Below, piece by piece: positions 3,039 through 35,792 of a stretch of DNA of 64,000 bases. The notes under the pieces were generated by a model. It was given only the letters and a program-made list of their open reading frames with translations, made no database searches and was not told the origin of the DNA. A program made the position numbers and the translations under genes. The DNA is from Escherichia coli (lineage in GTDB: Bacteria > Pseudomonadota > Gammaproteobacteria > Enterobacterales > Enterobacteriaceae): the NCBI RefSeq assembly GCF_003019035.1, contig NZ_CP027447.1; one strand, 5' to 3'. Position 1 is the first letter of the stretch; each line of letters begins with the position of its first letter.

Positions 3039-3681
3039 CCTGCTAAAAAATCTGCCGTGGCGCAGTCTGCTGCTGGCTGTGCTCATAAATGCTTTTCTGA
3101 TTGGACTTTATTACCTGGGCTACAAAAGCGGGCATGAAAACGCCACGCGCGACGGCGATAAGGCGATCAGTGAGTTGCAGTCAGCATTCGACACATACAA
3201 AACGGAGCAGGCAATGCTTGAGAACGCTGCGTTGCGAGCATGGGCAAAACGGTATCAGGAGCAGGTGGCCGCCGGGCAGCGGGCTGAAGCCGGTTATCTT
3301 GAGCAGATTGCTCAACTGGAGAGCCGGAACAAACAACTACAGGGGCAAATTAACGATGTCACACAGCGCTGGATTGATGAAAAAGGTAAGAGCCATCCCA
3401 TTGAGTGCGTGTTTACTCGCGGTTTCGTGCGCCAGTACAACGCCGCACTCGGGTATGACAACGCATCCGTCGACACCGGTCATTCAGACGCAACTGCCGC
3501 CGCTGGCACCGGCACTGGCGCAGCGACCGGGCAACCTGAAACCGCTGACGCCCGGTTACGCAATTCGGGTGTCTCCCAGCGTGACGTCCTCGCCAACATC
3601 ATCGACAACGCAGGGCAATGTCGTCGCTGGCGAAACCAGATAAACGCGCTGCTGGATGAACGGGAAGGATTACAGAAATGA
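3028..3681 (+). CDS. i-spanin (Rz-like): N-terminal TM helix plus coiled-coil periplasmic domain (GTG start in ORF track)
   Basis: N-terminal TM (LLLAVLINAFLIGLYYLGY), coiled-coil region, and position directly after endolysin. Confidence 0.5.
   Translation: MWTNLLKNLPWRSLLLAVLINAFLIGLYYLGYKSGHENATRDGDKAISELQSAFDTYKTEQAMLENAALRAWAKRYQEQVAAGQRAEAGYLEQIAQLESRNKQLQGQINDVTQRWIDEKGKSHPIECVFTRGFVRQYNAALGYDNASVDTGHSDATAAAGTGTGAATGQPETADARLRNSGVSQRDVLANIIDNAGQCRRWRNQINALLDEREGLQK
3377..3643 (+). CDS. o-spanin (Rz1-like) lipoprotein, 88 aa, entirely embedded in the +1 frame of the i-spanin gene
   Basis: MKKVRAIPLSACLLAVSC signal/lipobox-like N-terminus followed by proline-rich sequence; ORF-track ORF 3101..3643 trimmed to internal ATG 3377. 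Confidence 0.45.
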   Translation: MKKVRAIPLSACLLAVSCASTTPHSGMTTHPSTPVIQTQLPPLAPALAQRPGNLKPLTPGYAIRVSPSVTSSPTSSTTQGNVVAGETR

Positions 3682-4004
3682 CACTGCAGGTTGAATTCTG
3701 GACGGTGGTGAGTTTTCTGCTCACCTTCATGGGGTTTGTTGGAGGGCTCGCCAAATGGTTGTTCAGTAAAACAGAAGAACGCCAGGCGGCACGATTCGCC
3801 TCCCTTGAACAGGCCCTGCAACAGTCCGCCTCCAACTGGGGCGAGCTGGAAAAGGAATTTATGCGATTTAAAGCGGATTTACCGCTGAATTATGTCCGTC
3901 GCGAGGATTATATCCGTGGCCAGACAGTCATCGAGGCCAAACTGGACGCACTTTACAACAAACTGGAAGTGGTACAGCAGTACCGCAATACCGGAGGTCA
4001 ATAA
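3678..4004 (+). CDS. small membrane-anchored coiled-coil protein, 108 aa (lysis-cassette accessory)
   Basis: N-terminal TM helix; SD GAAGGA before ATG; start overlaps spanin stop. Confidence 0.4.
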   Translation: MTLQVEFWTVVSFLLTFMGFVGGLAKWLFSKTEERQAARFASLEQALQQSASNWGELEKEFMRFKADLPLNYVRREDYIRGQTVIEAKLDALYNKLEVVQQYRNTGGQ

Positions 4005-4315
4005 TGGTCGATATTACCCGGGTACGCCGCGAATCCCTGCGCTGGAGTCTGCTGGTTGCCCTGAACAAAACCCGCCCTTACACCGCCAGCGAAACGTTGC
4101 TGCTGGACGTGTCCCGTGCCATCTACCCGGACACCACGCAACTGGAGCTGCGCCGGGAGCTTGATTATCTGGCAGATCGCAAAATGGTGGAGCTGGAGAA
4201 GAGACCGTCCGGTGACTGGTTTGCCGATCTGAGTCGCCTTGGTGTGGATATTGTGGAATACACCGTGGAATGCGGCCCGGGTATTGCCCGCCCGGAAAAA
4301 TACTGGAGTGAGTGA
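4004..4315 (+). CDS. hypothetical phage protein, 103 aa
   Basis: SD GGAGG before ATG; within the late operon. Confidence 0.4.
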   Translation: MVDITRVRRESLRWSLLVALNKTRPYTASETLLLDVSRAIYPDTTQLELRRELDYLADRKMVELEKRPSGDWFADLSRLGVDIVEYTVECGPGIARPEKYWSE

Positions 4316-4866: not shown

Positions 4867-6179
4867 CAGCGGCCATTCAGCTGTATCCCTATCAGCAGTC
4901 GTGGTTTCTGGATCGTGCCCGTTTCAAGATTGGTATGTTTGCCCGTCAGACGGGCAAGACGTTCACCACCACGCTGGAACTGGTTGATGACTGTTTTGAA
5001 ACGGAGGCCTCAGGGGGACGTACACGCTGGGTGATCCTCTCGCGCGGGGAGCGTCAGGCAAAAGAAGCCATGGTGGAGGGGGTGAAAAAACACTGCAGCG
5101 CCTACCGGATGGCGGCCCGTGAGGTGGAAAGTTATTACCGTGCTGAAAGCGGCGAACGCTACACCATGCTTGAGGTGGAGTTACCCGGCGGCTCCCGTAT
5201 CACGGCCCTGCCGGCGAATCCCGACACGGCTCGTGGGTTTGCGGCTAACGTCTTTCTGGATGAGTTCGCCTTCCATGCCGACAGTCGCAAAATCTGGACC
5301 GCTCTGTTTCCGGTCATTTCCAACGGCTACAGACTGCGTGTGACATCGACACCGAACGGCAAGGGAAACAAGTTTTATGAACTGATGACCAGCAACGCCC
5401 TTGAAAATGTCTGGTCACGTCACATCGTGGATATTTACCGTGCCGTGCGTGATGGTCTGCCGCGGGATATTGCACAGATGCGACAGGCGCTCAACGATGA
5501 TGACGCCTGGGCACAGGAGTTTGAACTGAAGTGGCTGGATGAGGCATCGGCCTGGCTGACGTTTGAACTGATTGACGGCGTGGAGCACGATGCTGCCGGG
5601 CTGCCGGTGCACTATACGGGTGGCCCCTGCTTTGTGGGGGTGGATATTGCTGTTCGTAATGACCTGTTTGTCATCTGGGTGCTTGAACAGGTGGGGGATG
5701 TCTACTGGACCCGGGAAATCATCACCCGTAAACGGGCCACCTTTGCTGAGCAGGATGCTTTGCTGGATGACGTATTTTTCCGTTACCGCGTGCTGCGCTG
5801 CTGTATGGATCAGACCGGGATGGGAGAAAAGCCGGTGGAGGATGCACAGGGTCGCCATGGCAGAAGCCGTGTGGAGGGGGTGATATTTAACAGCCCGAAC
5901 AAGCTCACCCTCGCGACCCGTGGCAGGGAGATGTTTGAGGACCGCCGCCTGCGTATTCCGGCGGGAGATGTGGTCCTGCGCAGTGATCTGCATAAACTTC
6001 GCAAGGTTACCGGGCCTACCGGAACTCCCCGCTTTGTGGCCGAAAGTGATGCAGCAGGTCACGCCGACCGCACATGGGCCTGTTTTCTGGCAATAAACGC
6101 CACTGACGGACCGTCAGGGCCGGTGATGGCCCGTTCGCGTCACCGCCGTGAGGCTGGTCATATACTGGAGGGATTCTGA
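4863..6179 (+). CDS. terminase large subunit, 438 aa
   Basis: N-terminal ATPase motif (FARQTGKT) and position before the portal gene. Confidence 0.8.
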   Translation: MTAAIQLYPYQQSWFLDRARFKIGMFARQTGKTFTTTLELVDDCFETEASGGRTRWVILSRGERQAKEAMVEGVKKHCSAYRMAAREVESYYRAESGERYTMLEVELPGGSRITALPANPDTARGFAANVFLDEFAFHADSRKIWTALFPVISNGYRLRVTSTPNGKGNKFYELMTSNALENVWSRHIVDIYRAVRDGLPRDIAQMRQALNDDDAWAQEFELKWLDEASAWLTFELIDGVEHDAAGLPVHYTGGPCFVGVDIAVRNDLFVIWVLEQVGDVYWTREIITRKRATFAEQDALLDDVFFRYRVLRCCMDQTGMGEKPVEDAQGRHGRSRVEGVIFNSPNKLTLATRGREMFEDRRLRIPAGDVVLRSDLHKLRKVTGPTGTPRFVAESDAAGHADRTWACFLAINATDGPSGPVMARSRHRREAGHILEGF

Positions 6180-7675
6180 TGGCGAGGGGTATCTGGGTTT
6201 CACCCGATGAATTTGTTGCTTTTTCTGAGCCTCAGAAATCACTGACCGCGCAGATTGCCTCCCGCAGCCGCGCGATCGACTTTTACGGACTGGGCATGTA
6301 TCTGCCCAATCCTGATCCCATTCTCAAGGCTCAGGGACGGGATATCCGTATCTACCGCGAACTGCGCACCGACCCGCTGGTCGGGGGCTGTATCCGCAGA
6401 CGTAAAGCAGCGCTCAAATCGCTGGAGCGTGGACTGGAGCGCGGTCACGCTTCTGCCCGGGTCTTCCGTTTCATCCGCGACATGCTCGACGATCTGGATC
6501 TGTCCCGCATCATCGGTGAGATGAGCGATGCCGTGCTCTACGGGTATCAGCCCTGTGAAATCATGTGGGGCCGTTCGGTCAGGGCGTGGGCGGTGACGGA
6601 TATTGTCGGCAAACCGCCTGAGTGGTTTCAGTTTGATACGGACAACTGCCTGCGCTTCCGGGCGCGTGATGCGGGTGTGGAGGGTGAGCTGCTGTCACCG
6701 TCAAAATTCGTGGTGCCGGCACAGGATGCCTCGTATGACAATCCTTACGGTTTCCCTGACCTGTCCATGTGCTTCTGGCCGGTCGCCTTCAAGAAAGGCG
6801 GGATGAAATTCTGGCTCCGCTTTGCCGAAAAGTTTGGCTCCCCATGGGTGATCGGTAAGCACCCGAGGGGTGCAAATGATGCAGAGATTGAAAAACTGCT
6901 GGACTCCATGGAGCAGATGGTGGAGGACGCGGTGGCCGCCATCCCTGATGACAGCAGCATCGAACTCAAAGCAGCGGATGGCAAGGCGGACAGCAGCGAG
7001 GTATTCCGCGAGCTGATCACACTGTCACGCAGTGAGATCTCCATTGCATTACTCGGTCAGAATCAGACCACGGAAGCGAACAGTAACAAGGCCTCTGCAC
7101 AGGCCGGGCTGGAGGTGACGGCTGATATCCGCGATGCGGATGCGGACATCATTCAGGCGGCAGTGAATCAGGTCATAAGAACGGTGGTCACCCTGAACTT
7201 CGGCGATGTGCCGTGTCCGGTCTGGGCCATGTGGGAACAGGAGGCCATTGATGACACCCGTGCCACCCGCGACGAAAAACTCACCCGGGCGGGTCTGCGT
7301 CTGACCCCGCAATACTTCAAGCGTGAGTACCAGCTGCAGGACGGCGATATTGACGAGACACCACCGTCAGAACGCGAGAAGAACATGCTGCCGCTGTCAT
7401 TTGCCGAGGCGATTGATGCCGATATTCAGGCTCAACAGCAGCTTGACGACGCGCTGGACATTCTGATGAACGGAGGTGTGTTAAATGGCACGCTGGAACC
7501 CGTCCTGGCACCTCTGTTTAAGCGGGTCGAAAACGGGGTTAACCCGTCTGAGCTGCTGGGCGAACTGGCGGAGCTCTACCCTCAGATGAACACGGACGAT
7601 CTGCAGGAACGGCTGGCCCGCATTCTCTTTGTGGCAAATATCCGGGGGCGTCTGCATGAGCGTGACAACGGCTGA
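6179..7675 (+). CDS. portal protein (Mu gp29-like, DUF935 family), 498 aa
   Basis: Size, order and family resemblance. Confidence 0.75.
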   Translation: MARGIWVSPDEFVAFSEPQKSLTAQIASRSRAIDFYGLGMYLPNPDPILKAQGRDIRIYRELRTDPLVGGCIRRRKAALKSLERGLERGHASARVFRFIRDMLDDLDLSRIIGEMSDAVLYGYQPCEIMWGRSVRAWAVTDIVGKPPEWFQFDTDNCLRFRARDAGVEGELLSPSKFVVPAQDASYDNPYGFPDLSMCFWPVAFKKGGMKFWLRFAEKFGSPWVIGKHPRGANDAEIEKLLDSMEQMVEDAVAAIPDDSSIELKAADGKADSSEVFRELITLSRSEISIALLGQNQTTEANSNKASAQAGLEVTADIRDADADIIQAAVNQVIRTVVTLNFGDVPCPVWAMWEQEAIDDTRATRDEKLTRAGLRLTPQYFKREYQLQDGDIDETPPSEREKNMLPLSFAEAIDADIQAQQQLDDALDILMNGGVLNGTLEPVLAPLFKRVENGVNPSELLGELAELYPQMNTDDLQERLARILFVANIRGRLHERDNG

Positions 7676-8477
7676 ACTGGCGTACTGCATGACGCTTCCC
7701 CCGAAGCGGGCAGTCAGTTACCTGAAGTCCAAAGGGTATCAGATTACCTGGGACTGGGAAGAAATGTGGCAGGAAGCCCATGCCCGCGCCTTTACCGTCG
7801 CTAAAGTGACCCGCCTGGATATTCTGGAAGATATTCGCGGGGCACTGCAGCAGGCTGTCGATGAAGGAAAAACCGATCGCTGGTTCCGGCAGGAGCTGGA
7901 GCCGGTGCTGAAGCGTAAGGGATGGTGGGGACCACGTGACACGACTGACCCGGTAACGGGTGAGCCGGTCACCATTCAGCAGGGCAGCCCGTGGCGGCTC
8001 GACACCATCTTTCGCACCAATATGTCCGTACTCTACAGCGCCGGTCGTTGGGCGGAGCAGATGGAAAACGTCGACGACAGGCCGTACTGGATGTATACCG
8101 GCATCAACGACAGCCATACCCGCAGGAGCCATCTGGCGCTGCATGGTCTGGTGCTGCGCTGGGATGACCCGTTCTGGCAGGCATTTTACCCGCCGAACGG
8201 CTGGCGCTGCCGCTGTAGTGTGATTGCCCTGAGTGCGGCGGATGTACGTGCCCGGGGCCTGAAGGTTATCAGCTCCGGCTCTGCCATGGGCCAGGAACTG
8301 AAACTGGTCTCAGAGAAAACCGGCGAAATGCGGAACGTGGCCACCTTTAATACCGGCACCACGAAGGTGACCACCGACGTCGGCTGGTCTTATGCACCGG
8401 GGGCAGCATACCGTCCCGACCTGGCCCGCTATCAGGGTACGCTTCAGCCACTGGCACAACAGGAACTGAGAGGATAA
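7656..8477 (+). CDS. head morphogenesis protein (Mu F-like); ORF-track start 7629 is TTG, ATG 7656 preferred
   Basis: Mu F-like sequence and position after portal. Confidence 0.65.
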   Translation: MSVTTAELAYCMTLPPKRAVSYLKSKGYQITWDWEEMWQEAHARAFTVAKVTRLDILEDIRGALQQAVDEGKTDRWFRQELEPVLKRKGWWGPRDTTDPVTGEPVTIQQGSPWRLDTIFRTNMSVLYSAGRWAEQMENVDDRPYWMYTGINDSHTRRSHLALHGLVLRWDDPFWQAFYPPNGWRCRCSVIALSAADVRARGLKVISSGSAMGQELKLVSEKTGEMRNVATFNTGTTKVTTDVGWSYAPGAAYRPDLARYQGTLQPLAQQELRG

Positions 8478-8479
8478 CA

Positions 8480-8938
8480 ATGGCTTCCGATAACCTGGTC
8501 AGTATCACCATTAACGATAAATCCCTGCGCCGGAGCCTCCGTGCGCTGGATCTTGCTGCCACAGACCTGGAGCCCGCGATGCGCAAAATCGCCGGAACCC
8601 TGCTGGCGGAAACACAGTTTAACTTTCTTGATGAGGGGCGTCCGGGGTGGATGCCCTCGCTGGCAGCGGAAGAACGTGACGGGCAGACACTGCAGGATAC
8701 CGGGCGTCTGATGGGGTCAGTATCAACCGACCATGACGCCCGGCAGGCTGTTGTGGGGACCAACGTTGTTTACGGTGCCATTCACCAGTTCGGGGGTAAA
8801 ACGGGGCGTAATGAGTCTGTTGAACTTCCGGCCCGCCCGTTCCTGCCGGTGACGGGGGATGGAGAACTACAGCCTGAAGTGGTAATCCCCATCCTCGATA
8901 CCATTGTCCGCCATCTTGAATCAGCGGCCCGTCGCTGA
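8480..8938 (+). CDS. virion morphogenesis protein (Mu G-like), 152 aa
   Basis: Family resemblance; SD GAGAGGA. Confidence 0.6.
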   Translation: MASDNLVSITINDKSLRRSLRALDLAATDLEPAMRKIAGTLLAETQFNFLDEGRPGWMPSLAAEERDGQTLQDTGRLMGSVSTDHDARQAVVGTNVVYGAIHQFGGKTGRNESVELPARPFLPVTGDGELQPEVVIPILDTIVRHLESAARR

Positions 8939-9152
8939 GTTTTCTCTCTTCAGGCGGGTGATTTATCATTGCCAGCGAATGAGGGGCTGTATTACCTTTA
9001 TAAAGGCTTTACAGCCTCTGTTTTATAACCGCTTCCGGTTCACCGCATTGCTTTCCCTGTCCTTCTCCCCTGATGTTTTCTAAAGCAGATTAAAATCGCC
9101 GGGCCTGCATTTCTCACAAACTGTCTCCGACAACATAACGCGGGACAGCAAA
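8939..9152 (+). promoter_or_regulatory. 214-bp intergenic region inside the head operon with an imperfect palindrome centred on TTTATAAA; candidate late promoter (position of Mu PI)
   Basis: Long gap in an otherwise tightly packed operon; palindrome seen at ~8985-9020. Confidence 0.3.
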
Positions 9153-10268
9153 ATGTCAGCCATTCACATTTTTAAAGCCGGTACTCATACCGATATGCAC
9201 GGCAAAAAACTGCCGTTCACGCCAGACGATCTTGCCGCCTGCGTGAAAGCCTATGACCCGTCCGTCCATGAAGCACCACTCGTGATTGGTCATCCCAGAA
9301 CGGAAGACCCGGCGTGGGGCTGGGTGAAAGCCCTGTCGCTCAGCGGCGTCGATCTGATGGCAGAGCCTGCCCAGCTGGACCCGCAGTTTGCTGAGATGGT
9401 CACCGACGGACGATTCAAAAAAGTGTCCGCCTCTTTCTACCTCCCGGATTCACCGTCCAATCCGAAGCCCGGCGTGCTCTACCTGCGCCATGTGGGCTTT
9501 CTCGGGGCACAGCCACCTTCCGTCAAGGGGCTGAAACAGGTGTCCTTCAGTGAGCAGGAAGAAGGTGTGGTGGAGTTCGCCGACTGGCAGGCCATCACGA
9601 ATGCCTCCCTGTGGGGAAAGCTGCGCGATTTTCTGATCGCCCGCTTCAGTCTGGACGAGGCAGAAAAAGTCCTGCCGGAATGGCAGCTCAACAGTCTGCG
9701 CGAAGAGGCGTACCGCGACACACTGTCGCAGGATGCAGCAGGTGCCCAATTCAGTGAGACAGGCCCGGGGCCGTCTTCCGCAAGTAACGAGGAATCATCG
9801 ATGACAAAAGAAGAGATTGAAGCCCTTCAGGAGGAGAACCGCCGCCTGAAGCAGCAGGCTGCTGATCGCGATGCGCGTGATGCACAGGTCAGACAGGAGC
9901 AACTGCATAAGGACAATGTGGCCTTTGCAGAAAAACTGGTCGCAGAGGGCCGTCTGGCTCCCCGCGCCTCCTCCGTGGTGGTTGCCCTGCTGGATGCCGT
10001 CGCCGGTGGCGACAAGCCGGTGGAGTTTGCTGAGGGGGAAAGCCGCACACCGCTGGCCACCGCCTTTCGTTCATTGCTCTCCGACGGGGAGCCGGTGATG
10101 AATTTCGCCGAACAGGCCACAAAAGAGCGTGTCGGCGACACGGTGAAGGTGGATGTGGCGGAGTTTGCGGAAGCCGATCCTGAGCGTCTGGCCCTGCATC
10201 AGAAAGCAGTGGCCCTGTCCAAAAAAGAAGGCATCAGCTATGAGGCTGCTGTCGCACGCTGCCTGTAA
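9153..10268 (+). CDS. head maturation protease (Mu I-like) with C-terminal scaffold region
   Basis: Mu I-like N-terminal region; coiled-coil C-terminal half. Confidence 0.7.
   Translation: MSAIHIFKAGTHTDMHGKKLPFTPDDLAACVKAYDPSVHEAPLVIGHPRTEDPAWGWVKALSLSGVDLMAEPAQLDPQFAEMVTDGRFKKVSASFYLPDSPSNPKPGVLYLRHVGFLGAQPPSVKGLKQVSFSEQEEGVVEFADWQAITNASLWGKLRDFLIARFSLDEAEKVLPEWQLNSLREEAYRDTLSQDAAGAQFSETGPGPSSASNEESSMTKEEIEALQEENRRLKQQAADRDARDAQVRQEQLHKDNVAFAEKLVAEGRLAPRASSVVVALLDAVAGGDKPVEFAEGESRTPLATAFRSLLSDGEPVMNFAEQATKERVGDTVKVDVAEFAEADPERLALHQKAVALSKKEGISYEAAVARCL
9801..10268 (+). CDS. nested in-frame scaffold protein (Mu Z-like), internal ATG with SD GAGGAA
   Basis: In-frame ATG at 9801 preceded by GAGGAA at 7 nt; Mu makes Z from an internal start in I. 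Confidence 0.4.
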   Translation: MTKEEIEALQEENRRLKQQAADRDARDAQVRQEQLHKDNVAFAEKLVAEGRLAPRASSVVVALLDAVAGGDKPVEFAEGESRTPLATAFRSLLSDGEPVMNFAEQATKERVGDTVKVDVAEFAEADPERLALHQKAVALSKKEGISYEAAVARCL

Positions 10269-10282
10269 TTTAAGGAGAAATC

Positions 10283-11236
10283 ATGTCTGATTACTTAAAA
10301 GGTAAACGTGTCGTTGATCCGGTACTGACCAGTATCGCCCGTGGCTATAAAAATGCCGCATTCATCGGCGAACGTATTTTCCCCGTCGTGCTGACGGACA
10401 AGGAAGGCGTGCGTGTACCGACCTTCGGGAAAACCGCCTTTGTGGAATATGACACCGAGCGCGCCGTCGGGGCGGACAGCAATGTTCTGGTCCGTGAGAA
10501 AACCGGCACGCTTGATCTGGTGCTGGGTGAACACGATCTGGCAGCGCCGGTGGATTACCGCGAACAGGCGGAGTCCATGTTTAACGAGGAGAGCAAGGCC
10601 ATCCGTCGCGCCACGAATGGCGTGAACCTGCGCCGTGAACTTATCGCTGCCCGTCTGGCTCAGGATGAAAAGGTCTACCGTACCGGACACGTCAAAAAAC
10701 TGACGTCCGGCGACCGCTGGGCCGGTGGTAAGGGTGACCCCATCGGGGTGATTGAAGCCGGTATGGAAGCGGTCCGTACGGCCACAGGGCTGCGTCCTAA
10801 CCTGATGACCATGGGTGCCGGCGTGATGGCGCTGCTGAAGTTCCATCCAGCACTTCAGGCAGCCATCGGAGCCAACGAGCGTAAGCGCATCACCACGGAG
10901 ATCCTGCAGGACCTCTTTCAGATCGAAGAGATCGTCATCGGTGCTCCTGTTTCCCTGCCATCCATGAAAGCGGCAATGGATAAAAACAGCGTGCCGGCGG
11001 ATATCTGGGGAGACAACCTGATGCTGCACTATGTCGGCAAACCGCAGCCCGGGGCGGACAGCGCGGACGAGAACGAGCCGTCCTTCGGCTACACTCTGCG
11101 TCGTAAGGGGATGCCTGTTGCTGACAAATACGACGGAGCCGGTGGCAAGGTGAAGTACTGCCGTTATACCGATATCTACAAAGTCGCCGTGGTTGGTGGC
11201 GATGCCGGGTATCTCATCACCGGTATCAGTAAATAA
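10283..11236 (+). CDS. major head subunit (Mu T-like), 317 aa
   Basis: Size, strong SD AAGGAG, position after protease/scaffold. Confidence 0.8.
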   Translation: MSDYLKGKRVVDPVLTSIARGYKNAAFIGERIFPVVLTDKEGVRVPTFGKTAFVEYDTERAVGADSNVLVREKTGTLDLVLGEHDLAAPVDYREQAESMFNEESKAIRRATNGVNLRRELIAARLAQDEKVYRTGHVKKLTSGDRWAGGKGDPIGVIEAGMEAVRTATGLRPNLMTMGAGVMALLKFHPALQAAIGANERKRITTEILQDLFQIEEIVIGAPVSLPSMKAAMDKNSVPADIWGDNLMLHYVGKPQPGADSADENEPSFGYTLRRKGMPVADKYDGAGGKVKYCRYTDIYKVAVVGGDAGYLITGISK

Positions 11237-11245
11237 GGAGGCGTT

Positions 11246-11584
11246 ATGGGAACCACTCAGCAGGTCATTCTGATTACAACCGTAACGGCAGGGGCAGAAC
11301 TGGCACAGCAGCGTTTTGTCGGGGCAGATAATACCCCCTGTAAAGCCGGTGCCGCAGCGCTCGGGGTTGCCGATGTGGATGCTGTTACCGGCGACAGCAC
11401 GCCGGTGAGCGTTCTGGGCATTATTGCTGTTGAGGCCGGTGCTGCGGTCAGCCGTGGTGTGGCTGTTCAGTCAGATGCTCAGGCCAGAGCCGTGCCGCAG
11501 TCCGGCGACGGTAAATCCTGTGGTATTGCACTTGATGAAGCCGGGGGTGAAGGCGACGTCATTCGTATCCTGCGCGGGGTGTGA
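11246..11584 (+). CDS. small Gly/Ala/Val-rich head-associated protein, 112 aa
   Basis: SD AGGAGG; position after major head gene. Confidence 0.4.
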   Translation: MGTTQQVILITTVTAGAELAQQRFVGADNTPCKAGAAALGVADVDAVTGDSTPVSVLGIIAVEAGAAVSRGVAVQSDAQARAVPQSGDGKSCGIALDEAGGEGDVIRILRGV

Positions 11585-19139: not shown

Positions 19140-20281
19140 ACAGTACTGCGCAAGCCACATCAGCGTTAACCGGCGTCAGCGATGTGCTGACGCCGGTATT
19201 CACTCTGTGGTATCTGCAGAAAAACATCACCTCTGATATCGCGCCTTATGTCACCCGTGTGGTCTGGAGCGATAACATCAAAAATGAGTCCGATACCATT
19301 GAGGTGGAGCTGGACGACACCGATGGCCGCTGGCTGGATAAGTGGTATCCGGGCAAGGGTGACACGCTGACGCTGAAAATGGGTTATCAGGGCGAGAAAC
19401 TGCTGTCCTGCGGTACATTCTCAATAGACGAGATCGAAGTGAGTTCGCCCGCGTCCGTTGTCGCTATCCGTGGGGTGGCCACCTCGGTTAACAGTGCTCT
19501 GCGGACTAAATCCAGCCGTGGTTTTGAGAACACCACGCTGGCAGCTGTTGCGGGGCGGATTGCCAGAAAGCACCGGCTGAAACTGGTGGGCAGCATTGAG
19601 TCCATCAGAATCGACCGGGTGACCCAGTATGCTGAAACCGACGTGGGTTTTCTGCGCCGGCTGGCCAGCGAGTATGGTTATGCAGTGAAAGTGGTCAGTG
19701 ACCAGTTGATTTTTTCTCATCTGGCCACACTGCGCAGTCAGGAGCCGGTCAGGCAGTTAAAACCGCAGGATGTGGCCTGCTTTTCCCTGCGTGACACCAT
19801 CAACCGGGTCTATAAATCTGCAAAGGTAAAACACCAGAAAAGCAGCAGTAAAAAACTGATCGTCTACGAAGCTGATGGTGGTACCCGTGAAAGCGACAAA
19901 AAGCTCAAAGGCGGTAAGGTTACCAGCGCTGACTCACTTAAAGTTAACAGCCGCGTCAGCGACCCGGACAGTGCCCGGATTAAAGCGGATTCAGCACTGG
20001 CCAGACATAACGAATACCAGCAGAACGGCTCCCTGACGCTGACGGGAACGCCTCAACTGACAGCAGGCAACAAAATTGAACTGGTGGGCTTTGGACAGTT
20101 ATCCGGTCCATGGCTGATAATCACTGCCCGCCATGCGTTTGAGCGTAACAGCGGCTACACCACAGAGCTGGAAGTGGCACGGGGGCCAGTCACAAGAGGG
20201 AAAAAACAAAAAACTCAGAAACTCACGGTTTATCACCCGGATGGCAGTACATCGACGGTGATTAAGGAGAAGAAAAAATGA
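19127..20281 (+). CDS. tail/baseplate hub protein (P2 gpD-like / Mu P-like), 384 aa
   Basis: Order and family resemblance. Confidence 0.65.
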   Translation: MAEINSTAQATSALTGVSDVLTPVFTLWYLQKNITSDIAPYVTRVVWSDNIKNESDTIEVELDDTDGRWLDKWYPGKGDTLTLKMGYQGEKLLSCGTFSIDEIEVSSPASVVAIRGVATSVNSALRTKSSRGFENTTLAAVAGRIARKHRLKLVGSIESIRIDRVTQYAETDVGFLRRLASEYGYAVKVVSDQLIFSHLATLRSQEPVRQLKPQDVACFSLRDTINRVYKSAKVKHQKSSSKKLIVYEADGGTRESDKKLKGGKVTSADSLKVNSRVSDPDSARIKADSALARHNEYQQNGSLTLTGTPQLTAGNKIELVGFGQLSGPWLIITARHAFERNSGYTTELEVARGPVTRGKKQKTQKLTVYHPDGSTSTVIKEKKK

Positions 20282-20805
20282 CTGGTGTCACCCGTCAGAT
20301 CGGTACGGTCAGTGCCGTTGATGCCGACAGGGTTCAGGCCCGCGTTCGTCTGCCTGAATGCGATAATCTGCGCACAAACTGGCTTAACGTGCTACAGCGC
20401 AATACCCAGGATAACAAGGATTACTGGCTCCCTGACGTGGGGGAGCAGGTTGAGGTGCTGCTCGATGCCAACGGCGAGGATGGTGTTATTCTGGGCGCGG
20501 TGTACTCAGACGTCGATAAACCGCCGTTCAGTGATAAAAACGTCCGGGGTACGAAATACGCTGATGGCGCGGAGTTCAGTTATAACCGCGCGACCCATAC
20601 GCTGACGGTCAGAGGAGGTATTGAGCGTATCGTGGTGGAGGTTGCCGCTGATATCTCTCTCAAAGGGAAAAAACTCGACCTCACGGGAGTTACCACGATC
20701 AACGGCCCCGCGACACTCAATGGTGATCTGGAAATCAACGGAAGCGCCCATGCAACGGGTAACATATTTGCTGATGGTCAGAACTCTAATCACCATTCCC
20801 ATTGA
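20278..20805 (+). CDS. baseplate assembly protein V (spike), 175 aa
   Basis: gpV-like sequence. Confidence 0.7.
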   Translation: MTGVTRQIGTVSAVDADRVQARVRLPECDNLRTNWLNVLQRNTQDNKDYWLPDVGEQVEVLLDANGEDGVILGAVYSDVDKPPFSDKNVRGTKYADGAEFSYNRATHTLTVRGGIERIVVEVAADISLKGKKLDLTGVTTINGPATLNGDLEINGSAHATGNIFADGQNSNHHSH

Positions 20806-20861
20806 ACCTTCTTAAACGCCTTTAATATCGGCGCTTACTTCCCGGGGGCAATACTGCCTCC

Positions 20862-21209
20862 ATGAAAACGACCTCAGTATTCTGGCAACCAGCTCTGCAG
20901 GCTCCCGGCGAAATCGTCCGGGGGCTGGATGATATCCGGCAGTCCATCCAGATCATCCTGCGGACTCCCCGCGGCAGCGACCCGCATCGCCCGGAGTTCG
21001 GCAGCAATCTGCACCTTTATATCGACTGGCCTGTCGACCGGGCCATTCCGCATGTGGTTCGCGAATCCGTCGATGCCATCAGGCGCTGGGAACCCCGCTG
21101 CCAGCTTATGTCGGTTAAACCCGCCGTCGACGGCGAACATCTTACGCTCCGGGTGAGCTGGAAAGGCTCAGACGGACAACCCCGTACTCAGGAACTGCTA
21201 TGGCGCTGA
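20862..21209 (+). CDS. baseplate wedge protein gpW/gp25-like, 115 aa
   Basis: GPW_gp25-like sequence. Confidence 0.7.
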   Translation: MKTTSVFWQPALQAPGEIVRGLDDIRQSIQIILRTPRGSDPHRPEFGSNLHLYIDWPVDRAIPHVVRESVDAIRRWEPRCQLMSVKPAVDGEHLTLRVSWKGSDGQPRTQELLWR

Positions 21210-22303
21210 CAGAACCCGATTTTATTGAACGCGATGCCGATAAAATCACGGCAGAAATGATTGCGAAGTATGAAGAGGATACCGGAAAAACGCTGTACCC
21301 GGCACAGGCTGAACGTCTGCTGATTGACCTGTGGGCCTATCGCGAAATGCTGGTCAGGGTGGCAGTACAGGAGGCGGCGAAGCAGAATCTGGTCGCTTTT
21401 TCCCGTGAGCCGATGATTGATTACCTCGGTGAACTGGTCGGTGTATACCGCCTTGCCGCGCAGCCTGCCACCACCACACTTCAGTTCTCTGTGGATGAGG
21501 CACTGGCCATTGATGTGCTGATCCCGGCAGGCACCCGCGTCAGCGCTTCCGACAGTATTATTTTTGCCACCGATACAGACGTGGTGCTGAAGGCCGGATT
21601 GCTGCTGGTCAATGTCACGGCCACCTGTACCGAGCCGGGTACCGCTGGCAACGGCTGGCAACCGGCGCAGGTCAGTCAGTTACTCGATGAGATTGATAAC
21701 ATTGACCTGCTGGTGACCAATCTGACGGCCAGCTCTGGCGGTTCAGAGCAGGAAGACGATGACCGGCTCCGGGAGCGTATCAGGCTGGCCCCGGAGTCAT
21801 TCACCAATGCCGGAAGCCGTGGTGCATACCGTTTTCATGCTATGGGGGCGCATCCCGGCATTGTCGACGTTGCTGTTCTTTCTCCCGCTCCCGGCACTGT
21901 CGAGCTGTATCCGCTGCTCAGCACTGGTCTGCCGGACAGCAGTATCCTCACTCTGGTAGAGAGTTTCTGTTCTGACGAAAAAGTCAGACCACTCACTGAT
22001 ACCGTGCGGGCTAAAACACCTGTTCAGGTGGATTACACCATTGAAGCCAGGATTACGATCTATCGTGATCAGGATGCAAGGTTGGTAAAGGACAACGCTA
22101 ACAGCGCCATACAGAACTGGGTGGCATCCCGTACCGCCACGCTGGGGCGCGATATTGTTCCCAGCCAGATTATCAGCGTGTTGTCCGTTTCCGGGGTGTA
22201 CCAGGTCGAACTGGTGACACCGGCACTGAGGGTGGTGGCAGAAAACGAATGGGCAAACTGTACGGCGATCACTCTTAACATGACCGGGGTGTCCGATGGC
22301 TAA
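21200..22303 (+). CDS. baseplate protein J-like, 367 aa
   Basis: Baseplate_J-like sequence and order. Confidence 0.8.
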   Translation: MALTEPDFIERDADKITAEMIAKYEEDTGKTLYPAQAERLLIDLWAYREMLVRVAVQEAAKQNLVAFSREPMIDYLGELVGVYRLAAQPATTTLQFSVDEALAIDVLIPAGTRVSASDSIIFATDTDVVLKAGLLLVNVTATCTEPGTAGNGWQPAQVSQLLDEIDNIDLLVTNLTASSGGSEQEDDDRLRERIRLAPESFTNAGSRGAYRFHAMGAHPGIVDVAVLSPAPGTVELYPLLSTGLPDSSILTLVESFCSDEKVRPLTDTVRAKTPVQVDYTIEARITIYRDQDARLVKDNANSAIQNWVASRTATLGRDIVPSQIISVLSVSGVYQVELVTPALRVVAENEWANCTAITLNMTGVSDG

Positions 22304-22876: not shown

Positions 22877-23845
22877 ATGGCAAATCTACCCGAAACCCCG
22901 CAGTGGGAAAGCGGCATCTACCAGATTGAGGTCTCTGACCCCGTTCTGGGCGGACCTGACGGAATTTCTAACCGCCAGGCTAAACAACTGGCCAGCCGAA
23001 CGTCATACCTCAAACAGAAGGTCGAAAAAAGCGGAACAGACCTGGCTGCACATATCGCGGCAGTTGACCCGCATACCCAGTACGCGACGAAAGCCAGTCC
23101 GACATTCACCGGCACACCAACAGCACCTACACCTGCAAATGGTGATAACAGCAAAAAGCTGGCGACGACGGAGTTTGTGGCCAAAGCACTTGCGGCACTT
23201 GCAGGCAGCGCCCCTGAGACACTGGATACGCTTAAAGAGCTGGCTGACGCTCTCGGTAATGATCCAAACTTTGCGACTACGGTACTGAACAAGCTGGCGG
23301 AAAAGCTGGCTAAAGACCAGAACGGCGCAGATATTCCTGAGCCTGCGCTGTTTGTCAAAAACCTTGGTTTGGGGGAAGGCTCTGCACTGCCCGTTGGTGT
23401 GCCCGTTCCGTGGCCCTTAGCAACACCACCAACGGGCTGGCTGAAATGTAACGGTGCAGCATTTTCTTCTGAAATGTACCCCAAACTGGCAAAAGCCTAC
23501 CCCGCGAATAAATTACCGGATTTACGCGGAGAATTTATCCGTGGCTGGGATGATGGGCGAGGAATTGATGCGGCACGCGCTTTATTGAGCATTCAAAACG
23601 GGATGTTGGAAAAACACCGCCATATTGTTGTAGCTAACGATGGATATGACACAAAAGATGAATGGGAGTTGGCTACGATTTTCAAAAAAACATATACACA
23701 AGGCAGGGGGCTTGATGCCACAAATACAGGAGGGAGTTTGACTCCATCACCAACGCTTCATTCACGAGGAAGTATTGGTAACACAGGTGGTAGTGAAACC
23801 CGCCCCCGCAATATTGCATTTAACTATATCGTGAGGGCGGCTTAG
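22877..23845 (+). CDS. tail fibre protein: constant N-terminal part fused to the variable C-terminal part currently in the + orientation
   Basis: Tail-fibre-like N-terminus; C-terminal ~155 aa lie inside the invertible segment. Confidence 0.75.
   Translation: MANLPETPQWESGIYQIEVSDPVLGGPDGISNRQAKQLASRTSYLKQKVEKSGTDLAAHIAAVDPHTQYATKASPTFTGTPTAPTPANGDNSKKLATTEFVAKALAALAGSAPETLDTLKELADALGNDPNFATTVLNKLAEKLAKDQNGADIPEPALFVKNLGLGEGSALPVGVPVPWPLATPPTGWLKCNGAAFSSEMYPKLAKAYPANKLPDLRGEFIRGWDDGRGIDAARALLSIQNGMLEKHRHIVVANDGYDTKDEWELATIFKKTYTQGRGLDATNTGGSLTPSPTLHSRGSIGNTGGSETRPRNIAFNYIVRAA
23361..23386 (+). other. gix/hix-like recombination site, left (TTGTCAAAAACCTTGGTTTGGGGGAA)
   Basis: Matches the AAACC-NN-GGTTT core of Gin/Hin sites; sits at the outer edge of the long inverted repeat. 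Confidence 0.55.
23371..23569 (+). repeat. inverted repeat, left copy (~200 bp, high identity to reverse complement of 24772..24978)
   Basis: Direct comparison of the two stretches; both encode GEGSALPVGVPVPWP...GRGID. Confidence 0.8.
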
Positions 23846-23851
23846 TTATAT

Positions 23852-24469
23852 TCAACTGGCTGCTGCCAGAGGCATTTCCGGCCAGTTGATATCCGGTGCA
23901 GTGCTGATGTCAGTCGCATTAAGCACATCTATGAAATCAAGCACGGCGTTTAGTTTTTCCGTCTCCTGGGGCGTCAATCGGCGTCCGGCTCGTAGTTTGA
24001 GATTTATAAGCTCAACAGATGCCATTGCCTGTTCCTCAAGTTGCTGACGATGCACTCCGGCAGCTTCCAGTTCTGCTGCGTGCTGTCGTCCCGCATCTGT
24101 CACCCAGGTCTCACCATCCCAGACATCATAGATAGTAGCTGGCTGTTTCACCGTCGTATCAGGAGGGTAATCTCCCGGTTGTGTGATTTGCACAGCGTTA
24201 CCATTCTCTGTGCTGTAAACCGTTTCGCCTCTGTGGTCTGGAACATATTTCCAGATGTTCTGGTCGGTATCACGACAGACAGCGAAGCCGGGGCGTTTTT
24301 CTGGTGGCGCGTCAATGCATGAGTGAGCCGGAATTCCAACACCATAAGCGAGATACTCAACAGTGGCAGAGAGATATTCACGGTTTTCAGCATCGTAGTT
24401 ATAAACGGTAATATCGCCTGCAGTTATAGCGATACCATTCTGATCAAGTACTGCAGCAGCATTATTCAT
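23852..24469 (-). CDS. tail fibre assembly protein (Tfa/U-like), 205 aa
   Basis: Tfa-like sequence; start overlaps stop of the inverted alternative fibre segment. Confidence 0.7.
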   Translation of the reverse strand: MNNAAAVLDQNGIAITAGDITVYNYDAENREYLSATVEYLAYGVGIPAHSCIDAPPEKRPGFAVCRDTDQNIWKYVPDHRGETVYSTENGNAVQITQPGDYPPDTTVKQPATIYDVWDGETWVTDAGRQHAAELEAAGVHRQQLEEQAMASVELINLKLRAGRRLTPQETEKLNAVLDFIDVLNATDISTAPDINWPEMPLAAAS

Positions 24470-24972
24470 TAAGTAGCCCTTACAATATAGTTAAACGCAA
24501 TATTACGGGGGCGGTTTTCCGTTCCTGTATTCCCTCCGTTGGCACCTAATCTATAAACACCACGAGTGCCAATAGCACGTAGTGAAGATGGAACTTTTAC
24601 ACCTGACTCATCTGTTTTAACAATCCCGCCATCACCGTATGTAGCCAGTATACCAGGGTTTGTTCCTGCACGGGTGCTATTTGCGGCAAGCCCTTCACCA
24701 GTCCATAACTCCATATAGTGAATATGATCTATAACCGAATGTGATTGTGCATTAAGCAAGGAACGCCCTGAATCAATTCCCCGCCCGTCATCCCAGCCGC
24801 GAATAAACTCACCCCGTAAATCCGGTAATTTATTCGCGGGGTAGGCTTTTGCCAGTTTGGGGTACATTTCAGAAGAAAATGCTGCACCGTTACATTTCAG
24901 CCACCCTGCTGGCGGTGTGGCTGAGGGCCACGGAACGGGCACACCAACGGGCAGTGCAGAGCCTTCCCCCAA
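24469..24972 (-). CDS. alternative tail fibre C-terminal segment (silent in this orientation; no own start expected)
   Basis: First 65 aa near-identical to internal part of the + strand fibre; different C-terminal ~100 aa ending in the same RPRNIAFNYIVRA motif. Confidence 0.65.
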   Translation of the reverse strand: MGEGSALPVGVPVPWPSATPPAGWLKCNGAAFSSEMYPKLAKAYPANKLPDLRGEFIRGWDDGRGIDSGRSLLNAQSHSVIDHIHYMELWTGEGLAANSTRAGTNPGILATYGDGGIVKTDESGVKVPSSLRAIGTRGVYRLGANGGNTGTENRPRNIAFNYIVRAT

Positions 24973-24978
24973 ACCAAC
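24772..24978 (-). repeat. inverted repeat, right copy
   Basis: Reverse complement matches 23371..23569. Confidence 0.8.
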
Positions 24979-24988
24979 GTTTTCGTCT
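24963..24988 (-). other. gix/hix-like recombination site, right (reads GACGAAAACGTTGGTTTGGGGGAA on the - strand)
   Basis: Same AAAC-NN-GGTTT core in inverted orientation. Confidence 0.5.
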
Positions 24989-25043
24989 TAACTCCCACCT
25001 ATACCAGCTATGTATTTTTAACAAAACAAAGAGGATATTTTTC

Positions 25044-25616
25044 ATGCAAATTGGCTACATTCGTGTGTCAACAAATGACCAGAATACAGATTTACAACGA
25101 AACGCACTGAACTGCGCAGGATGTGAACTGATTTTTGAGGATAAAATCAGCGGAACAAAGTCAGCCCGACCGGGATTGAAAAAGCTGCTCAGAACGTTAT
25201 CAGAAGGAGATACGCTCGTTGTCTGGAAGCTGGACAGGCTGGGCAGAAGCATGAAACACCTCATCACTCTTATTGAGGAACTGCGGGAAAAAGGGGTTAA
25301 CTTCCGTAGTCTTACAGACAGCATTGATACGTCAACACCCATGGGACGTTTCTTTTTTCACGTCATGGGGGCTTTAGCGGAAATGGAGCGTGAATTAATA
25401 GTTGAACGAACACTGGCCGGACTTGAAGCAGCACGTGCACAGGGGCGTATTGGTGGACGTCGTCCGAAACTGACAAAAGAGCAACATGAACAAATAGCAA
25501 GGCTGATCAAAAATGGCTATAGCAGGAAACAGTTGGCAATTATTTACGATATCGGTATATCGACGATTTATCGTTATCACCCTGTAGAGGAACTTCAAAC
25601 TCAAGCTGAGTTGTAA
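25044..25616 (+). CDS. Gin/Pin/Hin-family serine DNA invertase, 190 aa
   Basis: N-terminal MQIGYIRVSTNDQ catalytic-serine motif and near-identity of long blocks to Gin/Pin as I remember them; SD AAGAGGA. Confidence 0.85.
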   Translation: MQIGYIRVSTNDQNTDLQRNALNCAGCELIFEDKISGTKSARPGLKKLLRTLSEGDTLVVWKLDRLGRSMKHLITLIEELREKGVNFRSLTDSIDTSTPMGRFFFHVMGALAEMERELIVERTLAGLEAARAQGRIGGRRPKLTKEQHEQIARLIKNGYSRKQLAIIYDIGISTIYRYHPVEELQTQAEL

Positions 25617-25691
25617 TTCTTTTTCTGATATTGAAATGCCGCGGCGATGTAATTTATCTCACGGAAATAGGTACGTTTATCGCGCGGCGCA

Positions 25692-26204
25692 TCAATTCCT
25701 TTGTAAATCCAGCAAATCATCAATGCCAGTTTCACTTGCGGTATAAAAACTATCGGACTGAAAAACACACGGGCGACCTTGCTGATTAAAGGTCATCAGA
25801 ATCAAAAACGCGTTAGGTGCCAGACCATTTCCTGAAATACCCCGCCAGATAACCAGATCCTGAATGCCGTTACGATCAAGATCGGCACGGTAAAGTTGCG
25901 CATTACCCGCCATATTTTGCAGCACCCCCACAGGCACAGACCAGGATTTACCGGCGCGATCTTTACCGTTCAATTGCCATTCACTATCATCATTTGGCAT
26001 CTTTTCAAGCGTCACGCCAGCAACGCCGACTTTTCTAAAATGCCAGGTTTGCTCGGCATCATAAGGCATGGTCAGGAGAGGTTTCAGCGCCCGCTTTTGC
26101 GCGTATTCGCTGTCACTCATCGGCAGATATTCGGTAAAGCTGGTGGCCTGTGCAGGCAGCACTAAGCTCAATAAAAAAGCGCACATCCCTGTTCTGATGT
26201 TCAA
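25692..26204 (-). CDS. secreted hypothetical protein, 170 aa (signal peptide ...LSLVLPAQA), between invertase and hycI
   Basis: Signal-peptide-like N-terminus; TTG at 26204 or ATG at 26186 as start. No family recognised. Confidence 0.5.
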   Translation of the reverse strand: MNIRTGMCAFLLSLVLPAQATSFTEYLPMSDSEYAQKRALKPLLTMPYDAEQTWHFRKVGVAGVTLEKMPNDDSEWQLNGKDRAGKSWSVPVGVLQNMAGNAQLYRADLDRNGIQDLVIWRGISGNGLAPNAFLILMTFNQQGRPCVFQSDSFYTASETGIDDLLDLQRN

Positions 26205-26228
26205 TTCCCTGAATTCCTTACTGAAAAA

Positions 26229-26699
26229 CTACTCTTCTTCCACCGCTAACTGCGCGAAGCCGCCGTTCCCTTCCCAGCCTTCCAGACGTTGATAAACGGT
26301 TTCCACCGCATCTTTAATCGGCTGGGTCATCGGGTAGTAAAAGCCGACGATATCCGGCTGGATGCCGAGGAAAATCACTTCGCCAATGTCTTCTTTCAAC
26401 TGGTCGATAAGGTAGTTCAGCGGCATGTTATGGGTAGTCATCATAAACATCTCGGCGATGTCATCCGGGTCGATGATGCGGATCTCGCCGGGGTTTAGCC
26501 CCATATCCGTGGCGTCGACAATCAGCAGTCGTGTCGGGCGCAGTTCACGGATGGCGACGATATCGTTTTCCGGTGCGCTACCGCCGTCAATCACCACCCA
26601 GTTACCTTTCGGCGCGGCGGCGCACTTTTCCGCCAGCAGCGGGCCTGCGCCATCATCGCCCATCATGCTATTGCCAACACAGAGTAAAACGTCAGTCAC
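26229..26699 (-). CDS. hycI: hydrogenase 3 maturation protease
   Basis: Recognised E. coli protein sequence; operon context. Confidence 0.9.
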   Translation of the reverse strand: MTDVLLCVGNSMMGDDGAGPLLAEKCAAAPKGNWVVIDGGSAPENDIVAIRELRPTRLLIVDATDMGLNPGEIRIIDPDDIAEMFMMTTHNMPLNYLIDQLKEDIGEVIFLGIQPDIVGFYYPMTQPIKDAVETVYQRLEGWEGNGGFAQLAVEEE

Positions 26700-27102
26700 G
26701 CAATCTCCTCACCATCAAATAGATGGCATTTTCCTGATAAATATCATGCAGCATACTTAACAGCATGGTACTCCATTCTTTCTGCTGCGAAGTTTGCGCT
26801 GCCCGGGCTTTATCGAATGCGTTAGCCAGCATCGGCACATGGTTAATGTCGATGACGATCTCACCGTACTTCGGCACGCCTTCCATTTTACGGCGGGCTT
26901 CACTGCCCGCCTCCAGAGTGGCAATCCATGCCAGATATTCATCCCACGGGCAGGTGAGCGCGGCTTCCAGGCAATCGATAACCCCAAGGTGGTGACCAAT
27001 CGCCAGGCTGTAATAGACCACCTGCTGCGCCTCGGCGGGCGTGGCATCGTTCTCATCAATAAATTTACGGCTCAGTTGACTGAACACCACCTTTTCACTC
27101 AT
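26692..27102 (-). CDS. hycH: formate hydrogenlyase maturation protein HycH
   Basis: Sequence and gene order. Confidence 0.9.
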
Positions 27103-34302: not shown

Positions 34303-34653
34303 ATGCACGAAATAACCCTCTGCCAACGGGCACTGGAATTGATCGAACAGCAGGCCGCAAAACACGGCGCAAAACGCGTAACTGGGGTCTGGCTCAAAAT
34401 TGGCGCATTTTCTTGTGTCGAAACCAGCTCTCTTGCCTTTTGTTTTGATCTGGTTTGCCGCGGCAGCGTGGCGGAAGGTTGTAAACTGCACCTCGAAGAA
34501 CAAGAGGCCGAATGCTGGTGTGAAACATGCCAACAGTATGTGACGCTACTGACCCAGCGCGTCCGCCGCTGTCCACAGTGTCATGGTGACATGCTACAGA
34601 TTGTGGCAGACGACGGTTTACAGATTCGGCGGATAGAAATAGACCAGGAGTGA
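34303..34653 (+). CDS. hypA: hydrogenase nickel incorporation protein
   Basis: Recognised sequence (MHEITLCQ...); ORF track extends 4 codons upstream. Confidence 0.9.
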   Translation: MHEITLCQRALELIEQQAAKHGAKRVTGVWLKIGAFSCVETSSLAFCFDLVCRGSVAEGCKLHLEEQEAECWCETCQQYVTLLTQRVRRCPQCHGDMLQIVADDGLQIRRIEIDQE

Positions 34654-34656
34654 GCG

Positions 34657-35529
34657 ATGTGTACAACATGCGGTTGCGGTGAAGGCAACCTGTATATCGA
34701 GGGTGATGAACATAACCCTCATTCCGCGTTTCGTAGCGCGCCATTTGCCCCGGCGGCACGCCCGAAGATGAAAATCACCGGCATTAAAACGTCTGAATTT
34801 ACCCCCAGCCAGACTGAAGAAGGCGACCTGCATTACGGTCATGGCGAAGCGGGCACTCACGCGCCGGGCATGAGCCAGCGTCGGATGCTGGAAGTCGAAA
34901 TTGACGTGCTGGACAAAAATAACCGTCTGGCTGAACGCAACCGCGCGCGCTTTGCTGCCCGCAAGCAACTGGTGCTCAACCTGGTTTCCAGCCCTGGTTC
35001 CGGTAAAACCACCCTGCTGACGGAAACCTTAATGCGCCTGAAAGACAGCGTTCCGTGTGCAGTTATTGAAGGCGACCAGCAAACCGTGAACGATGCCGCG
35101 CGCATTCGCGCTACCGGCACACCAGCGATTCAGGTGAACACCGGTAAAGGCTGCCATCTCGACGCTCAGATGATCGCCGACGCCGCACCGCGCCTGCCAC
35201 TGGCCGATAACGGTATTCTGTTTATCGAAAACGTTGGCAACCTCGTATGTCCGGCGAGCTTCGATCTCGGTGAAAAACACAAAGTGGCGGTGCTTTCCGT
35301 TACCGAAGGTGAAGACAAACCGCTGAAATATCCACATATGTTTGCCGCCGCCTCACTGATGCTGCTCAACAAAGTTGACCTGCTACCGTATCTCAATTTC
35401 GACGTTGAGAAGTGCATCGCCTGCGCCCGTGAAGTCAATCCAGAAATTGAAATCATCCTTATTTCCGCCACCAGCGGCGAAGGGATGGACCAGTGGCTGA
35501 ACTGGCTGGAGACACAGCGATGTGCATAG
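34657..35529 (+). CDS. hypB: hydrogenase maturation GTPase/nickel-binding protein
   Basis: Recognised sequence; GSGKTT P-loop. Confidence 0.9.
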
Positions 35530-35792
35530 GCGTTCCCGGCCAGATCCGCACCATTGACGGCAACCAGGCGAAAGTCGACGTCTGCGGTATTCAGCGCGAC
35601 GTCGACCTAACGTTAGTCGGCAGCTGCGATGAAAACGGTCAGCCACGTGTGGGCCAGTGGGTACTGGTTCACGTTGGCTTTGCCATGAGCATAATTAATG
35701 AAGCCGAAGCGCGCGACACTCTCGACGCCTTACAAAATATGTTTGACGTTGAGCCGGATGTCGGCGCGCTGTTGTATGGCGAGGAAAAATAA
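35520..35792 (+). CDS. hypC: hydrogenase maturation chaperone (starts MCIGVPGQ)
   Basis: Recognised sequence; ATG overlaps hypB stop. Confidence 0.9.

Follow-up and report, generated by a model that had tools for sequence, protein, structure and literature searches.

The gene at 9153-10268 of an Escherichia coli prophage very probably encodes two proteins with a common C-terminus, a protease-linker-scaffold polypeptide and the scaffold alone, both of which would co-assemble with the major head protein. It was analysed within a 64,000-nucleotide stretch of DNA, referred to throughout as the window. The gene and its two starts are laid out as follows.

9153..10268, plus strand: full-length protease-scaffold open reading frame (ORF), 371 aa, 40.5 kDa; ATG start with a weak Shine-Dalgarno sequence (SD, −4.0 kcal/mol), stop codon TAA
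9789..9794, plus strand: SD of the internal start, GAGGAA; 6-nt spacer (tcatcg), duplex energy −5.9 kcal/mol
9801..9803, plus strand: internal in-frame ATG, Met217 ((9801−9153)/3 = 216), the proposed scaffold start codon
9801..10268, plus strand: nested ORF of the proposed scaffold, 155 aa, 16.9 kDa, pI 5.0; C-terminus common with the protease

The full-length ORF matches PHROG 976, ‘head maturation protease’, over residues 1-370 (E 2e-163). In a tblastn comparison it shares 48.8% identity with BcepMu gp32 over residues 4-366, or 98% of its length (E 5e-101). An earlier note on this DNA had singled out an in-frame ATG with an SD of its own inside the protease ORF, and both elements were read directly at the positions given above. 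In the window sequence alone, this combination is not beyond chance. The gene contains 24 in-frame ATG, GTG or TTG codons, eight of them with an anti-SD duplex of −5 kcal/mol or better, and the SD energy at 9801 is equalled or bettered at 16% of the gene’s in-frame positions. It is only the comparison with relatives that places the internal start far beyond chance. Other internal starts with SD-like sequences, at 9540, 9567/9570, 9918, 10020 and 10095/10098, were dropped because no matching column keeps both a start codon and an SD in over 12 of the 62 relatives. Scanning the entire window against Rfam gave no match, and thus no known RNA element is indicated at the internal start. In herpesviruses, the short product of the UL26/UL26.5 pair comes from a separate transcript and not from internal translation initiation. 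A sigma-70 promoter scan, to which activator-dependent late promoters are invisible, found no plus-strand promoter within the gene and therefore lends no support to a separate transcript of the UL26.5 kind.

For the comparison, 80 related loci from IMG/VR and cultured phages were reduced to 62 sequences less than 90% identical to one another (23 groups at less than 60%). Every in-frame codon of these relatives was scored for a start codon plus SD, an SD counting from −5 kcal/mol downwards. Opposite Met217, the alignment column holds GTG in 42 and ATG in 16 of the 62 sequences (58/62 together). Three of the exceptions (L049, L071 and L078) carry TTG or ATG exactly one codon upstream of this column, with a strong SD, and in the fourth, B3, an insertion specific to its lineage throws the alignment off, the annotated nested ATG of ORF36Z lying after the insertion and near the column. 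Met217 also aligns with the annotated nested GTG starts of BcepMu gp33 (residue 221) and RcapMu gene 40 (residue 220). The start codon is kept in effectively all 62 relatives and is accompanied by an SD at or below −5 kcal/mol in 55 of them, the runner-up column in the gene reaching 12/62; this supports the interpretation, made in the earlier note, that a scaffold is translated from the internal start. Checked against the refuting condition named in that note, loss of the internal start or of its SD in related phages, the interpretation held.

The codon and nucleotide patterns at this site are informative beyond the simple presence of a start. Where the column encodes Val, the codon is GTG in 42 of 42 sequences, compared with 41% GTG among the 1576 other Val codons of the same genes. 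The naive probability of an all-GTG Val column is 7e-17, and although naive probabilities overstate independence because the sequences are phylogenetically related, the GTG signal is still clear. The residues encoded by the SD vary among relatives (EE, QE, KE, KG and PG), and its GGA core occurs in two codon registers, 46 sequences against 10, coding for E/D or G, respectively. Together, the two registers and the varying residues point to selection on the nucleotides more than on the protein. A strong SD is not universal, since a clade of three IMG/VR sequences (L013, L016 and L018, 73-76% identical; compare Klebsiella phage KP12) keeps the ATG with a poor SD (caagagaa, −2.9 kcal/mol). In this clade, internal initiation may be weaker, or may rely on the unstructured, A-rich surroundings.

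Two further properties point to the internal site as a working one. Among the relatives, the internal SD has a median energy of −7.9 kcal/mol, compared with −2.4 kcal/mol for the best candidate full-length start, and it beats the SD of the full-length start in 52 of 61 cases (Wilcoxon p 7e-10). If scaffold is produced in quantity and protease sparingly, an internal SD stronger than the upstream one is what one would expect. No RNA of the gene is less structured than the 30 nt around 9801, which lie in the top 0.3% of in-frame positions when these are ranked by how unpaired they are, with a local minimum free energy of −6.9 kcal/mol against a gene median of −18.0 kcal/mol. In 48 of the 62 relatives, the internal site belongs to the least structured 10% of positions in the respective gene. 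This low structure could in part be a by-product of the A/C-rich codons in a P/T/Q/E-rich linker.

The placement of Met217 within the protein was examined in an AlphaFold2 model (mean pLDDT 82) computed from the alignment of the 62 sequences; the model divides the polypeptide as follows.

9153..9743, plus strand: protease domain, residues 1-197; beta-rich core at 1-125 and helices at 146-198 (AlphaFold2)
9744..9794, plus strand: linker, residues 198-214, disordered and poorly conserved (pLDDT <50); variable, P/T/Q/E-rich, ending just before the internal start
9807..9944, plus strand: long charged alpha-helix, residues 219-264 (46 residues; AlphaFold2 pLDDT ~95)

Met217 sits at a domain boundary: the disordered linker runs out here, and the 46-residue helix begins two residues further on. 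Downstream of residue 264 the model shows shorter helices and closes with a confident helix-turn-helix at 343-370. The N-terminal domain is predicted to have the prohead-protease fold of the T4 gp21/herpes assemblin type. His47, Ser92 and His113, candidate active-site residues, are invariant in the 62 sequences, in the order His-Ser-His, and the structural neighbours in BFVD include entries named ‘Prohead scaffold and peptidase’. The earlier note had described the C-terminal segment as rich in coiled coil. The long helix at 219-264 bears out its helical part and is a candidate self-association region of the scaffold. The coiled-coil part fared less well: the best heptad register of the helix places strongly hydrophobic residues at just 5 of 13 a/d positions, a weak pattern, and the lone coiled-coil-type Pfam match, to ZapB, is sub-threshold (E 0.16). 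The C-terminal part is thus predicted to be helical and scaffold-like, with a true coiled coil as a candidate reading.

The host element is a BcepMu-type, Mu-like transposable prophage, and its proteins in the window are 100% identical to those of Escherichia phage PhiKM, which is classified in Bcepmuvirus. The head module runs from the portal through Mu F- and Mu G-like genes and the protease/scaffold gene to the major head gene, the same order as in BcepMu.

6179-7675: portal gene; Pfam match to Portal_Mu
7656-8477: Mu F-like gene; Pfam match to Phage_Mu_F
8480-8938: Mu G-like gene, virion morphogenesis family; Pfam match
8939..9152, plus strand: 214-bp non-coding gap from the Mu G-like gene to the protease gene; terminator-like hairpins at 8921-8938 and 9004-9017
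10283..11236, plus strand: major head protein gene; PHROG 1005 ‘major head protein’ (E 4e-129), with a weak PF03864 match just below the Pfam cutoff
11246-11584: cement/decoration protein gene

The major head protein (10283-11236) is the presumed assembly partner of the scaffold. Gaps of ~200-270 bp are found at the equivalent place in BcepMu, B3 and RcapMu, and in phage Mu the late promoter P_I sits at the position equivalent to 8939-9152. A late transcription unit, with a putative promoter, probably begins in the gap. The boundary between the first two genes of the module also deserves a comment. In the program-made ORF list, the Mu F-like gene begins at TTG 7629 (SD −3.5), while ATG 7656, the start annotated in PhiKM and EC958, has a far better SD (−8.6); with this ATG, the gene overlaps the end of the portal gene by 20 nt.

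The closest precedent, rather than Mu I/Z, is BcepMu gp32/gp33, which combines full-length homology of ~49% with an internal start in the matching column and the same Mu G-like and major head neighbours. The nested products are similar in size, 156 aa for BcepMu gp33, 151 aa for RcapMu40 and 154 aa for B3 36Z, against 155 aa here. BcepMu has a Burkholderia host and a nested GTG start, whereas the host here is E. coli and the nested start is ATG. The BcepMu record describes gp33 with the words ‘nested conserved protein supported by IST data; Mu Z equivalent’. RcapMu 39/40 and B3 ORF36/36Z are likewise annotated as nested pairs, and phiE255 has equivalents. KS10 gp28/gp29 is annotated as a nested protease/scaffold pair (PMC2628397), and a similar internal Val start has been proposed for Pseudomonas Mu-like phages (PMC4378225). 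The gene is a member of the BcepMu gp32/gp33 family and would work like Mu I/Z.

The earlier note had held that the arrangement mirrors Mu I/Z, and the layout is indeed the same: an internal in-frame start with its own SD, a common C-terminus and the gene order G, I/Z, T. Mu I/Z is annotated with an internal ribosome-binding site and start, and in six further Mu I relatives there is likewise an internal start with an SD, leaving 146-192 aa. The likeness to Mu is one of layout rather than of sequence family. Mu I matches PF10123 (Mu-like_Pro) at E 2e-98, whereas the window protein, BcepMu gp32 and B3 ORF36 match no Pfam or NCBIfam model, and the window protein falls outside the Mu I sequence family because it has no PF10123 match. 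Likeness in fold is suggested by a BFVD entry named ‘COG4388 Mu-like prophage I protein’, matched at E 1e-5. The alignment with Mu I that the earlier note had proposed was carried out with hhalign at the profile level. The family profile gave nothing against Mu I alone (probability 0.2%) and a weak match against a seven-member Mu I alignment (probability 37%, E 3.5e-4, 122 columns), which covers the protease core only; in this match Ser92 pairs with Ser129, invariant in the Mu I family, and His47 comes within one residue of His73. The same profile comparison gave no match over the scaffold part. The BcepMu-type and Mu I families are therefore distant relatives in the protease domain at most.

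Searches for known families around the two products were otherwise empty. Neither the full nor the nested protein was assigned to a family by Pfam or NCBIfam (noise only in Pfam to E 10), and a profile search of PDB sequences returned only a noise match to sorting nexin-5. In Pfam, NCBIfam and PDB sequences, neither sequence nor profile comparison linked the C-terminal domain to a scaffold characterised by experiment. A stand-alone homologue of the 155-aa part was sought in cultured phages, where the part lay inside protease genes in 20 of 20 records and was never separate.

Protease and scaffold in one frame with a common C-terminus are also found in lambda C/Nu3 and herpesvirus UL26/UL26.5, in which the abundant scaffold carries a few proteases into the procapsid. 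The predicted assemblin/T4 gp21 fold is common to the herpesvirus protease and the window protein, whereas lambda C is generally assigned to another protease family, the S49/ClpP-like one. In P2 gpO, an N-terminal protease and a C-terminal scaffold domain are fused in one polypeptide, and P2 is not known to rely on an internal start. In contrast to P2 gpO, the internal start in the window family is conserved at the nucleotide level.

These comparisons suggest how the gene may act. Initiation at ATG 9153, with its weak SD, would yield a small amount of the 371-aa protein, comprising a serine protease of the assemblin/T4 gp21 fold, a flexible linker and a helical scaffold. Independent initiation at ATG 9801, with a stronger SD and unstructured RNA, would yield more of the 155-aa scaffold domain alone. 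Both products would then co-assemble with the major head protein around the portal, the common scaffold domain bringing a few protease copies into the procapsid. There the protease would break down both itself and the scaffold, which would empty the shell for packaging of the DNA, and would probably also trim the C-terminus of the portal. To the two starts, their conservation and relative SD strength, the RNA accessibility, the domain layout and the fold, this mechanism adds that the short product is made, that it outnumbers the protease and that co-assembly and cleavage follow, all of which we infer from Mu I/Z, lambda C/Nu3 and herpesvirus UL26/UL26.5. A scaffold function for the C-terminal domain is suggested by its position, its helical character and the annotation of its relatives.

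The main rival to internal initiation is a single polypeptide of the P2 gpO kind, in which only the 371-aa protein is made as scaffold and protease in one, autoproteolysis frees or destroys the scaffold part, and the internal ATG and SD go unused. Fused protease-scaffold proteins do exist, as the names of the BFVD neighbours recall, in cultured phages the C-terminal domain never occurs as a gene of its own, and the window’s own SD is unremarkable. Yet a single product leaves unexplained why the Val column is GTG only and why the start is shifted by one codon in L049, L071 and L078. It also offers no account of an SD kept in two codon registers, of an internal SD stronger than the upstream one or of the peak in RNA accessibility, and we regard it as improbable. 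Less probable again is that internal initiation is real and the 155-aa product is something other than a scaffold, for instance a minor part of the head or a factor that regulates or inhibits the protease. The lack of a match between the C-terminal domain and a characterised scaffold family, together with the weak heptad pattern, would fit such a role. However, from the portal to the major head gene there is no other scaffold candidate, the F and G genes being Mu F- and Mu G-like. The size, acidity and helices of the product, its place just upstream of the major head gene and its C-terminus common with the protease fit scaffolds such as Mu Z, and relatives are annotated as scaffolds (RcapMu, B3; KS10, PMC2628397). 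Least probable is chance, with Met or Val kept for protein reasons beside Glu-rich codons that resemble an SD, for although the gene is rich in GAG and GAA and matches at least as SD-like occur at 16% of in-frame positions, the linker around the start is otherwise unconserved and disordered, Val is always GTG and no other column comes near 55/62.

The protein sequences also contain a recurrent motif that may bear on the cleavage step.

Starts at 9387, 9546, 9750, 9924, 10026, 10104 and 10164, plus strand: seven F-[AS]-E motifs, at residues 79, 132, 200, 258, 292, 318 and 338, one of them at 10026..10034

Seven copies were reached by 0 of 20000 shuffles of the residues of the protease-scaffold protein, and those at residues 79, 258, 292 and 318 are kept in 43-56 of the 62 relatives. 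In the BcepMu, B3 and RcapMu homologues, F-[ASG]-E recurs 4-7 times. One copy of the motif lies in the C-terminal tail of the portal, at residue 408 of 498 in the window, 409 of 491 in BcepMu and 398 of 488 in B3; the motif sites of the window portal (6179-7675) are residues 15, 215 and 408. The F, G and major head proteins lack the motif. Mu I/Z (3057-4142 of the phage Mu locus used for comparison, in which the portal gene ends at 1093) shows a comparable pattern with a different motif, A-[AV]-L-[ST], which occurs six times (0 of 20000 shuffles) and once in the C-terminal third of the Mu portal. Virions are reported to lack this part, a loss that a structural study ascribes to cleavage by protease I (PMC11915804). 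We put forward, with more doubt than confidence, that F-[AS]-E may be a cleavage or recognition code of the BcepMu-type prohead-protease family and that the Mu I family may use A-[AV]-L-[ST] as an analogous code. If true, the substrates and cleavage sites of Mu-like head proteases would be predictable from sequence alone.

In public annotation, the arrangement is already known in this phage family and is missing only from the E. coli prophage. The nested gene is unannotated in RefSeq E. coli genomes and in PhiKM. RefSeq names both the full gene and the major head gene ‘hypothetical protein’ (the two lie at 20154-22237 of the EC958 locus used for comparison), and the full-length sequence is also named ‘peptidase’ in the protein collection. 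No Pfam model at gathering level and no NCBIfam model covers the protease-scaffold or major head protein. The exact 155-aa protein (9801-10265) is on record from 577 contigs, for example as MDW7113470.1 and VEW04492.1, under the names ‘conserved hypothetical protein’ or ‘peptidase’. We treat these records as automatic gene callers sometimes choosing the internal start and not as biological evidence. Of 5426 complete E. coli genomes, 636 contain the matching region, and if the BcepMu gp32/gp33 annotation were transferred, two head-assembly proteins would gain names across hundreds of genomes. The transfer would establish no new biological principle, and would offer another clean case in which the ratio of scaffold to protease is set by two unequal in-frame translation starts.

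The ST131 strain EC958 is among the genomes with the matching region. Its prophage lies between ycaL and aroA and encodes Mor, Gam, a DDE transposase and an invertase. At the right-hand end of this prophage, 34611-37909 of the EC958 locus (~23600-26900 of the window) holds tail-fibre gene fragments on both strands beside a ‘recombinase family protein’, and this layout looks like an invertible tail-fibre region of the Mu G-segment type.
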